A DNA stretch of 60,000 bases from Candidatus Aenigmatarchaeota archaeon. GTDB lineage: Archaea > Aenigmatarchaeota > Aenigmatarchaeia > CG10238-14 > SCSR01. The notes beneath the pieces were generated by a model. It did not search any database, was not told the DNA's origin, and saw only the letters and a program-made list of their open reading frames with translations. Positions 1,727-2,776 of the stretch are shown piece after piece. Where the stretch lies: assembly GCA_016213525.1 (NCBI GenBank), contig JACRAE010000005.1, forward strand, positions 83,405 through 143,404. The letters are read 5' to 3'. The position numbers and the translations under genes were made by a program. How positions within the stretch are numbered: position 1 is the stretch's first letter; each line of letters starts with the position of its first letter.

Positions 1727-1745
1727 CTCATCTCTCCTTGTGGTG

Positions 1746-1818
1746 TGCGCCAGCCGGGATTTGAACCCGGGCTCTAAGCTTGGGAAGCTCATGTCCTACC
1801 AGGCTAGACTACTGGCGC
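1746..1818 (-). tRNA. tRNA-Gly(CCC)
   Basis: GCGCCAG acceptor stem, anticodon arm TGAGC-TTCCCAA-GCTTA, T-loop GGTTCAAATCC; CCA not encoded at the canonical position. Confidence 0.95.
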
Positions 1819-1859
1819 TCTGCTAAGAAACCCTAGTTTTCGAAGGTAAAAAGATTTTG

Positions 1860-2013
1860 CGCTGAGGAGGGGATTTGAACCCCCATAGGCTTGCGCCTGC
1901 CGGTTGCCTAGCTCCCCGCTCAATTCACCTCCGACTCATCACGGGTCAGAGTCAAGCCATGTTATCATCGGGAGATTCAAGACCGGTGCACTACCGGGTT
2001 ATGCGACCTCAGC
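1860..2013 (-). tRNA. tRNA-Ser(TGA) with 70-nt intron at position 37/38 (intron 1906-1975)
   Basis: GCTGAGG/CCTCAGC acceptor stem, G73, anticodon stem CCGGT/ACCGG, CT-TGA-A, long variable arm AGGC-GCAA-GCCT, T-loop TTCAAAT; relaxed bulge-helix-bulge at the splice junctions. Confidence 0.93.
1906..1975 (-). ncRNA. Putative intron-encoded box C/D methylation guide sRNA
   Basis: On - strand: CTCCC stem, C box ATGATAA (1968-1962), 12-nt guide, D' CTGA (1949-1946), CCC, C' GTGATGA (1942-1936), 12-nt guide, D TTGA (1923-1920), GGGAG stem. Confidence 0.82.
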
Positions 2014-2056
2014 AATCCTTGGTTGTGGCTGCAACGATATAAAAAGAGCAGTTATC

Positions 2057-2776
2057 TCACTTCAGATATTTCTCCAGGTCTATCTTCGACGTGCCGTATT
2101 TGCCGAAATATTCCCTTATGGACACCTTCAGGTCCTCGTCGTTCATCTTTTGCGTGAAGCTTAGTTGGAGCGGAACCAGGTTCAGCGCGTTGCTCATCGG
2201 ATAGTAGGGTATGCCCTCATTTTCAAATAGCTCCTGAACGCTCAGGCCGTCATCCCTCCTCTCGTTCCTGTCCGTGAGAGTCACGCAGCCCAGTATCTTC
2301 GCGCCCTTCTTCTTCGCCATCTTTATCTCTTCCATAACCGACCCGGCGGTGGTCGTCGTGTCCTCTATCACAACCGAACCGTTCTTAGGGTCGCCGAAAA
2401 CGTAGTCCCTGTACTTGGGATTCCCATGGTCGTCTTTCGGCTTGCTCCTCCTTACGATTATGGGGTAGCTTATTTTTTCGTAGTCGGGCTGCCGTTTGGC
2501 CCACTCGTAAGTGGCTATGGAGCCCAGATTACCGGAACCCTCTATAACGCCTATGAAGGATTTCGGGTTTAGGTCCTTGCTTTTTACAAAGGGAATCAAG
2601 TACTGGTTGACCAGCTCGCTGAGCGTATACGCCTCGCCCATTATGAATTTCCAGTCTATGTAGTATGGGGAAATCCTACCGGAGCTGAGCTTCGTCTCCT
2701 CGAACCCGACTATGTTATGCTCCATCACGTATTTGTTGAAGGCGCCTTGGTTGAAGGATGACCCGTTTTTGGACAT
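2057..2776 (-). CDS. pyrE: Orotate phosphoribosyltransferase-like type I PRTase
   Basis: 'LSSGRISPYYID', flexible loop 'RRSKPKDDHG', PRPP motif 'VVIEDTTTTAGS'. Confidence 0.75.
   Translation of the reverse strand: MSKNGSSFNQGAFNKYVMEHNIVGFEETKLSSGRISPYYIDWKFIMGEAYTLSELVNQYLIPFVKSKDLNPKSFIGVIEGSGNLGSIATYEWAKRQPDYEKISYPIIVRRSKPKDDHGNPKYRDYVFGDPKNGSVVIEDTTTTAGSVMEEIKMAKKKGAKILGCVTLTDRNERRDDGLSVQELFENEGIPYYPMSNALNLVPLQLSFTQKMNDEDLKVSIREYFGKYGTSKIDLEKYLK

Follow-up and report, generated by a model that had tools for sequence, protein, structure and literature searches.

The window, i.e., the whole 60,000-nucleotide stretch of DNA analysed here (C3:83405-143404), belongs to an Aenigmatarchaeota-type genome of 662 kb in 7 contigs that is 89% complete, and carries on its minus strand a gene for tRNA-Ser(UGA) interrupted by an intron. 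Rfam recognises the gene as a tRNA (40.6 bits) and ARAGORN, when introns are allowed, as tRNA-Ser(tga), with a mature tRNA of 85 nt that has a long variable arm and G as discriminator. No other tRNA-Ser(UGA) was found in the assembly, a second ARAGORN call of tRNA-Ser(tga), on contig C4, being a mis-parsed 75-nt tRNA without the long variable arm. The subject of this work is the intron, the whole of which is a box C/D small RNA (sRNA) with two guides. The parts of the gene, in window coordinates, are the following:

1860-2013, minus strand: tRNA-Ser(UGA) gene with its intron
1976-2013, minus strand: 5′ exon, 38 nt, ending in CUUGAA
1978-1981, minus strand: CUUG, the central 4-bp helix of the bulge-helix-bulge, within the 5′ exon
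1906-1975, minus strand: intron, 70 nt, at the canonical position 37/38, entirely box C/D sRNA (ARAGORN i(39,70) and fold)
1970-1974, minus strand: 5′ half of the terminal stem, CUCCC (fold)
1962-1968, minus strand: C box AUGAUAA (DNA ATGATAA), read from the sequence
1950-1961, minus strand: D′ guide CAUGGCUUGACU (DNA CATGGCTTGACT), 12 nt, N+5 = A1408 of 16S rRNA
1946-1949, minus strand: D′ box CUGA, read from the sequence
1936-1942, minus strand: C′ box GUGAUGA, 3 nt past the D′ box
1924-1935, minus strand: D guide GUCGGAGGUGAA (DNA GTCGGAGGTGAA), 12 nt, N+5 = C1535 of 16S rRNA
1920-1923, minus strand: D box UUGA, read from the sequence
1912-1916, minus strand: 3′ half of the terminal stem, GGGAG (fold)
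1860-1905, minus strand: 3′ exon, beginning with AACCGG

Anatomy and excision of the intron

Positions 1970-1974 pair with 1912-1916 in a terminal stem of 5 bp, and the RNA that it closes has, in addition to the C and D boxes, the internal D′ and C′ boxes of an archaeal C/D sRNA, with 12 nt in both guide spacers. Both guides had been noticed in a preliminary description of the locus, which gave their letters and coordinates correctly as reverse complements of 1950-1961 (D′) and 1924-1935 (D). The C box has A instead of G at position 6 and the D box U instead of C at position 1. In the geometry of the K-turn, C-box position 6 pairs with D-box position 1, so that A6-U1 replaces G6-C1 and the two departures are compensatory; relatives of family f4 have G...C at these positions. 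Boxes and closing stem should thus be able to form a K-turn despite reading AUGAUAA and UUGA, and the stem itself differs in sequence among homologues yet stays complementary (GGCTATAG/TTATAGCC, AGCAA/TTGCT). Eight archaeal C/D families of Rfam match the element full-length at 1917/18-1972 with sub-threshold scores (sR2 16.4 bits vs a threshold of 42; snoPyro_CD 15.6 vs 45), and as these models are guide-specific, such scores are no argument against the C/D class.

In the f4 relatives (L015, L018, L028, L036, L044 and others) the C box seems to be shifted (CCGAUGU), the D box is CCGA or CUGA and the spacer from C to D′ has 16 nt vs 12, with a D′ guide that still pairs with 16S rRNA over 11 bp. 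Elsewhere in the organism's own genome, scans that were crude and give no proof of uniqueness found no other convincing C/D sRNA: a relaxed four-box pattern has 3 matches, with only the tRNA-Ser intron convincing among them, and a canonical C...D pattern with stem has 6, none of them with C′/D′ boxes.

The junctions of the intron fold into a bulge-helix-bulge (BHB), [CCGGU][CUUG](AAU)[CUCCC] ... [GGGAG][CUAG](GCA)[ACCGG], whose 4-bp helix includes one U.U. Four public sequencing runs were compared with window positions 1780-2100, and in the three RNA runs among them (X18, X19 and X20, from three studies of lake water, ice and lake water) one contig of 100 letters each matches with 0 differences. 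These contigs cover nothing but 1906-1975 and contain the back-joint 1975->1906; their length is the one that a 70-nt circle should give as a cyclic contig with k=31 (70 + 30), and the breakpoint of the circle differs among the three. The same joint is absent from the DNA run X1, which is probably the source of the assembly and which also contains a relative's contig of 37.7 kb that, with 4 differences, skips exactly 1906-1975, i.e., an intron-less allele. Therefore, the splice sites are confirmed twice, by the joint of the circular RNA and by the exact intron-less DNA allele. The intron has the motif at 37/38, the excision at the predicted sites and the circular product of a BHB tRNA intron, and it persists in nature as a stable circular RNA. 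No RNA cover falls on the tRNA exons or flanks in X18, X19 and X20, which says nothing on the expression of the tRNA.

The proteins that such an RNA would require are encoded in the same genome, namely L7Ae (104.5 bits), the splicing endonuclease EndA (89.5 bits), RtcB (566.7 bits) and, in adjacent genes, fibrillarin (256 bits) and Nop5 (204 bits). Transcription would thus yield a pre-tRNA with the bulge-helix-bulge motif, both bulges of which would be cleaved by the splicing endonuclease, and RtcB would ligate the exons and circularise the 70-nt intron. L7Ae, Nop5 and fibrillarin could then load on the circle, which would act in trans on 16S rRNA or its precursor; the anatomy, the circular excision, the covarying complementarity and the presence of the protein genes are what we show, whilst we infer the binding of these proteins, the transfer of methyl groups and any effect on 30S assembly.

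Targets in the organism's own RNAs

The preliminary description noted that the organism's 16S gene is not in the window, and it is indeed found outside it (C3:70383-71930; L001), as is the 23S gene (C3:58283-61785; L002), both on the same strand as the tRNA-Ser gene. Targets were sought in these two rRNAs and in 56 precursor and mature tRNA forms (10.3 kb altogether) as contiguous Watson-Crick base pairs covering the N+5 nucleotide. The best site for the D′ guide is CGTCAAGCCAAT of 16S rRNA, with 9 bp at guide positions 2-10 (E. coli 1405-1413), and the D guide finds its own in ATCACCTCCTCG, at the 3′ end of 16S, where it pairs over 8 bp with guide positions 2-9 (E. coli 1532-1539, UCACCUCC). 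A MAFFT alignment to the annotated E. coli 16S, used for the numbering, places GTCA at 1405-1408 and CCTCC at 1535-1539, and N+5 is therefore A1408 for D′ and C1535 for D. The latter is the first C of the anti-Shine-Dalgarno (anti-SD) CCUCC, exactly where the preliminary description had aimed the D guide.

For the D′ guide it had left a choice between A1408 and a site near the 16S 5′ end, and of these the first has stood and the second has not. The 5′-end site (AAGCCAUG) has 8 bp with guide positions 1-4 unpaired; lineages that carry the sRNA at site C of the 16S gene (see below), with guide CAAGGC, would retain 5 bp there; and the invariant 3′ part of the D′ guide (TTGAC) pairs solely at the site in helix 44 (h44). 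Better matches elsewhere, which would have spoken against the proposed targets, are found for neither guide in the 16S, the 23S and the 56 tRNA forms. Two candidates in 23S are no better than the 16S sites, one for D′ (AGCCAAGCCATA, 10/12 Watson-Crick, with a mismatch at position 3) and one for D (TTTGACTCCGAC, before the 23S start, with a mismatch at N+5). Complements in the genome at large, mostly outside stable RNAs, were not taken as targets. On the other hand, the 10 contiguous bp that had been proposed as a bar for this search are reached by neither guide, and the 9 bp proposed as a minimum are reached by D′ only, where complementarity of guides is usually at least 9-10 bp. Since 2.3% of 300 shuffled D′ guides reach 9 bp in 16S as well, and 8.7% of 300 shuffled D guides 8 bp, the match in the organism's own genome is suggestive rather than decisive, and it is the comparative and the RNA evidence that carries the weight.

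The tRNA scan bears also on a different reading, in which the intron would guide methylation of its own host tRNA. In the available part of a 2021 review (PMC7994747), the tRNA-Trp intron, which in Euryarchaeota acts on its own tRNA, is the only intron-located archaeal C/D sRNA named. This sR50 of pre-tRNA-Trp, for which the review cites Clouet d'Orval 2001 and Singh 2004, resembles the RNA described here in being a C/D sRNA that is a BHB intron at 37/38 freed by the splicing endonuclease. The analogy lends this reading some appeal, as does, by eye, a 6-nt match to CAAGCC in the variable arm. However, none of the 56 pre- and mature tRNA forms has a site of at least 7 contiguous bp covering N+5, and relatives carry the same sRNA in introns of the 16S gene, so that we consider guidance of the host tRNA extremely improbable. 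Unlike sR50, the present sRNA is hosted by tRNA-Ser(UGA), has guides that match 16S and has no target in its host tRNA. The organism's own tRNA-Trp gene (C1:23063-23176, mis-parsed by ARAGORN) has an intron of roughly 40 nt without C/D boxes that are clear by eye, unlike the euryarchaeal tRNA-Trp intron.

The same guide in putative 16S introns

The whole gene was compared by BLAST with 61 related genomes, and in many of the family's genera its sRNA part turned up at 84-90% identity, frequently with no tRNA exons beside it. In addition, one genome per prokaryote species was scanned with the pattern TTGACYCTGA-N(1-30)-TGATG-N(4-9)-GAGGTGRR, which gave 112 stretches, 61 of which pass a stricter regular expression; the rest, from bacteria and other archaea, match by chance. 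Together with 23 BLAST loci passing the same expression they make 84 loci, with 56 distinct sRNA sequences that were aligned, and the records with this sRNA are nearly all labelled Candidatus Aenigmatarchaeota or uncultured archaeon. By context, 21 of the 56 are tRNA-Ser(UGA) introns and 33 lie inside a 16S gene, whilst 2, unclassed by the regular expression for the T-loop, resemble the tRNA-hosted type of f4. The D′ box CUGA is invariant in all 56, partly because the search pattern imposes it.

In the 33 distinct 16S-hosted copies the D′ guide can be compared directly with the rRNA that surrounds it, and the two covary. The combination of GTCAAGCC in 16S with guide GGCTTGAC is found in 25 of them, and the five copies with GTCAAACC in 16S have the guide GGTTTGAC (three) or GGATTTGAC (two); the remaining three comprise one G.U pair, one guide with an inserted A and one locus too short for the site. 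As the compensatory cases are at different host sites, more than one compensatory event seems to have taken place. The pairing of the D′ guide extends to 11 bp in L067, L085 and L131 (16S GCCAAT, guide ATTGGC) and, with GCCATC in 16S and GATGGC in the guide, in the sister family f4; in families f19 and f21, which belong to other orders, it runs over 10 contiguous bp at the h44 site. The A1408 target is thus backed by the TTGAC pairing, by covariation and by longer pairing elsewhere.

For the D guide no covariation is visible, because its target core UCACCUCC never varies. What is seen instead is a guide core, (G)GAGGUGA, kept through the order, with a 5′ part that varies (GTC, GTT, GTA, CAA). 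Pairing is 8 bp in most copies and 7 bp in L022, L007 and L008, and it reaches 9 bp in five 16S-hosted copies with GTAGGAGG. Family f4 attains 10 bp, between CAAGGAGGTGAA and TCACCTCCTT. In the window's order, as in f24, f26 and f30, the anti-SD is the sequence that the D guide matches; the D guide of f21 has 8 bp elsewhere in 16S.

The 16S-hosted copies lie 110-201 nt downstream of the h44 site and 32-99 nt upstream of GGATCACCTCC, and so the sRNA stands in the 16S gene between its own two targets. There are four insertion sites in the 3′ minor domain, at about E. coli 1492, 1500, 1513 and 1520:

Site A: within GGGGCUA|AGUCG, at A1492/A1493
Site B: within AAGUCGCC|ACAAGG, about position 1500
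Site C: 5′ strand of helix 45, GCCGUA|CGGGAAC
Site D: 3′ strand of helix 45, CGGGAAC|GUGCGG

Examples are L016, L017, L023, L024 and L041, next to 28 other distinct loci. The insertions were searched for a 4-bp helix between two 3-nt bulges, followed by 3 bp or more of inner helix, the product not being prescribed. The top bulge-helix-bulge candidate gives the exact intron-less 16S in 21 of 31 representatives, and a candidate within the top three does so in 24 of the 31; most of the 7 that fail are variants of site C whose 4-bp helix has one mismatch. No consistent motif came out of a more stringent scan of the 16S insertions in which an adjacent outer helix was required. We read these insertions, from their sequences, as putative endonuclease-type rRNA introns that carry a guide for their own exons. 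They resemble the BHB introns in the 16S of Thermoproteales (PMC4496867) in being short insertions with two 3-nt bulges and a 4-bp helix, whose cutting restores an uninterrupted 16S. The Thermoproteales introns are described with homing-endonuclease open reading frames or no cargo, and the words sRNA, box C, guide and methylation do not occur in that paper; the present ones, in contrast, have as cargo a C/D guide against the exons on either side, and no outer helix adjoining the motif. Similarly, eukaryotic intronic snoRNAs are guides matured from introns of host genes of the translation apparatus, but here the introns are of the BHB-endonuclease kind, the product is circular and, in relatives, the target rRNA doubles as the host.

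The host of the guide seems to be anything but fixed. In the class-wide sample described below, tRNA-Ser(UGA) is the host in families f1, f4, f19, f20, f21, f23, f28, f30, f32 and f34, and 16S in f1, f5, f24 and f26. A quick maximum-likelihood tree of 27 genomes (700 nt of 16S, with long branches and SH-aLRT support only) requires 10 changes of host site vs a possible minimum of 4, and its well-supported branches alone force at least 3 changes for the tRNA label. For instance, genome G036 has the sRNA in the tRNA and its genus-mate G022 at 16S site C, and G025, a tRNA host, nests among site-B genomes; both the G036 and the G025 cases are anchored by single contigs with the tRNA as well as an intron-less 16S. 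Thus, the guide changed host site repeatedly among close relatives, in one direction or the other, and this appears to be new.

Some further insertions in 16S have no recognisable copy of the sRNA, i.e., L030, L124, L191, L193 and L194 at site B, and L136 and L139 after GTCGCCACAA; those of f5 contain the motif AATGATGAT and might hold another guide. One metagenome-assembled genome has two 16S 3′ ends on two scaffolds, with the sRNA at site B (L084) and at site A (L085), which could be two rRNA operons or a mixed bin.

Possible roles and the distribution of RsmA/Dim1

Taken together, these results make it very probable that the tRNA-Ser(UGA) intron is a C/D guide RNA that acts in trans on 16S rRNA as a circular small ribonucleoprotein (sRNP). 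Its D′ guide would pair in the decoding site, with 1405-1413 at the foot of helix 44, where fibrillarin would 2′-O-methylate A1408, and its D guide with 1532-1539, the final nucleotides of 16S with the anti-SD CCUCC among them, where C1535 would be methylated, so that one particle might grip both ends of the 3′ minor domain.

This dual target, A1408 and the anti-SD, is already known from Nanoarchaeum. According to Seistrup et al. 2017 (PMC5389701), Am1408, Am1409 and Am1534 are carried by N. equitans 16S, as detected with MALDI-MS and RiboMeth-seq; the D′ guide of sR13 is complementary to 1405-1415 and directed to Am1408, its D guide to 1531-1540 and Am1534. A1408 is likewise a predicted target in N. 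equitans and S. acidocaldarius in Dennis et al. 2015 (PMC4644070), whose supplement 1 gives 16S A1395 (= E. coli A1408) for Neq sR13 and lists its D guide as 'NP'. The tRNA-Ser intron sRNA and Neq sR13 are alike in being double guides of the same layout with h44 and anti-SD targets (pairing here at 1405-1413 and 1532-1539), a likeness at the level of layout and target positions. In addition, N. equitans, a DPANN archaeon, lacks RsmA/Dim1, and none was detected in this lineage. They differ in that the D target is C1535 here vs A1534 there, one nucleotide apart, that pairing is shorter (9 and 8 bp) here, that Neq sR13 is unlike the present RNA, which is an intron of tRNA-Ser(UGA) or, in relatives, of 16S, and is seen as a circle, and that the present lineage is Aenigmatarchaeota from groundwater whereas N. 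equitans is a hyperthermophile.

Several points weigh against the guide reading. Guidance of Am1408 and Cm1535, although the most likely function, is a prediction from pairing. The RNA contigs attest presence and a circular junction only, neither an RNP nor a level of expression. The element stays below every Rfam gathering score, with C and D boxes that are both non-canonical. The invariance of the TTGACY-CTGA, TGATG and GAGGTGRR columns is partly circular, as the retrieval pattern imposes them; free of this circularity are the 23 BLAST loci and the fit of the guide to each genome's own 16S. As for D, 8.7% of 300 shuffled guides match 16S over the same 8 bp. The 16S 3′ trailer, which the preliminary description had suggested to search, does not extend the pairing, reading TCG where GAC is needed. 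Further, 149 places in the genome nearly complement the D guide (at least 10/12 Watson-Crick or at least 9 contiguous), so that complementarity alone is not specific outside stable RNAs; these probably reflect abundant GGAGGTGA-type motifs. Finally, complementarity of the D guide to the anti-SD is lacking in other orders, and therefore only the A1408 guide is conserved class-wide.

One could conclude that only the D′ guide is functional and the D guide 'empty', its likeness to a Shine-Dalgarno sequence being fortuitous or serving the K-turn and stem. The frequency of chance matches, the conservation of D′ but not of D across the class and the lack of a predicted D target for sR13 in supplement 1 of Dennis et al. 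all speak in its favour. Even so, an empty D guide is unlikely, for its core (G)GAGGTGA persists across the order whilst the 5′ part of the guide varies, pairing rises to 9-10 bp where the flanking bases permit, and Seistrup et al. credit the Am1534 measured in N. equitans to the sR13 D guide.

A more serious contender is that the sRNP serves, instead of or besides guiding methylation, as an assembly clamp or timer, holding the 5′ strand of h44 and the anti-SD tail until its release. Folding or use of the 3′ minor domain would be delayed in this way, the checkpoint of RsmA/KsgA/Dim1 would be replaced, and methylation might be a by-product. Exactly this was proposed for Neq sR13 by Seistrup et al., who put sR13 forward as checkpoint replacement via the folding of helices 44/45 in an organism, N. 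equitans, without RsmA/Dim1; the proposal is repeated by Knueppel et al. 2021 (PMC7897474) for 'some additional nano-sized archaea' in which KsgA/Dim1 is absent. It also fits an alternative raised in the preliminary description, i.e., that the Shine-Dalgarno-like guide could chaperone the processing of the 16S 3′ end or mask the anti-SD.

If such interpretation is correct, RsmA/Dim1 should be missing here too, which is the pattern that the genomes suggest. A search with PF00398 did not find a true RsmA/KsgA/Dim1 in the organism's own genome at its 89% completeness; the sole match (25.5 bits, C2:91472-91696) is a GCD14/TrmI-type methyltransferase, with 70 bits for that family. An evenly drawn class sample of 151 genomes was then searched with a sequence-only model of the sRNA and with PF00398 at E<=1e-12. 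The sRNA is present in 41 and PF00398 in 78 of them, with both in 6, the sRNA only in 35, RsmA/Dim1 only in 72 and neither in 38. RsmA/Dim1 is found in 1 of the 25 genomes with a D guide of the anti-SD type (G139), in 5 of the 16 with another D guide and in 72 of the 110 without the sRNA. By family, it is absent from the 25 sampled genomes of the window's order (f1 0/14, f4 0/8, f5 0/3), in contrast to f10 (8/8), f14 (15/17), f19 (11/11) and f22 (5/5). However, genomes are related and 21 of the 25 are from one order, so that the anticorrelation, which appears to be new, may rest on few events and is a pattern in sequence data, not a statistic. Likewise, the sRNA and RsmA/Dim1 are both missing from 38 genomes and occur together in G139, and genomes are incomplete. 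On balance, the holding of h44 and the anti-SD tail is a real possibility, albeit one that we do not favour over methylation guidance.

In principle, the circular sRNP could also bind the anti-SD of the mature 30S and regulate translation initiation or act as its sponge, given that the D guide mimics a Shine-Dalgarno sequence and that the three metatranscriptomes show nothing of the locus but the circle. The h44 target of the other guide is buried in the mature subunit, though, and would fit precursors better, which makes such a role very unlikely.

It is tempting to go further and speculate, more tentatively still than for the holding of 16S ends as such, that in Aenigmatarchaeia a mobile intron-borne C/D guide took over the near-universal RsmA/KsgA/Dim1 checkpoint by clamping nascent 16S at the base of helix 44 and at its anti-SD tail. 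Often it would come from an intron in the same 16S precursor, splicing and release of the circular sRNP would license the 30S, and repeated moves between tRNA-Ser(UGA) and at least four 16S sites would have accompanied its history. An RNA-guided clamp replacing a conserved protein checkpoint becomes testable in this system by comparison and reconstitution. A full-text search of the literature, with subscription-only papers outside its range, gave nothing on C/D guides inside rRNA introns, nor on any such guides from Aenigmatarchaeota, and no report of the points that follow. As far as found, then, what appears to be new is an intron other than that of tRNA-Trp as C/D guide, aimed at rRNA and not at its host; the same guide in endonuclease-type 16S introns between its targets, which would be the first rRNA introns known with a guide for their own exons; and, in addition to the many changes of host site, a class-wide presence that tracks the absence of RsmA/Dim1.

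Three minor observations concern the rRNA genes and the surroundings of the locus. U1498 is a modified base in E. coli. At 1498-1499, instead of the near-universal GUCGUAACAAGG, the organism's own 16S and most of family f1 have GUCGCCACAAGG and family f4 has GUCGCAAC, whilst GUCGUCAC or the canonical form is found in some relatives. The match to its own 23S is 3503 nt long vs 2987 positions in the model, and this 23S therefore probably has insertions or introns. Finally, a gene for tRNA-Gly(CCC) (window 1745-1818, minus strand) lies 41 nt downstream of the tRNA-Ser gene, and given this distance and the common strand, the two may be co-transcribed.

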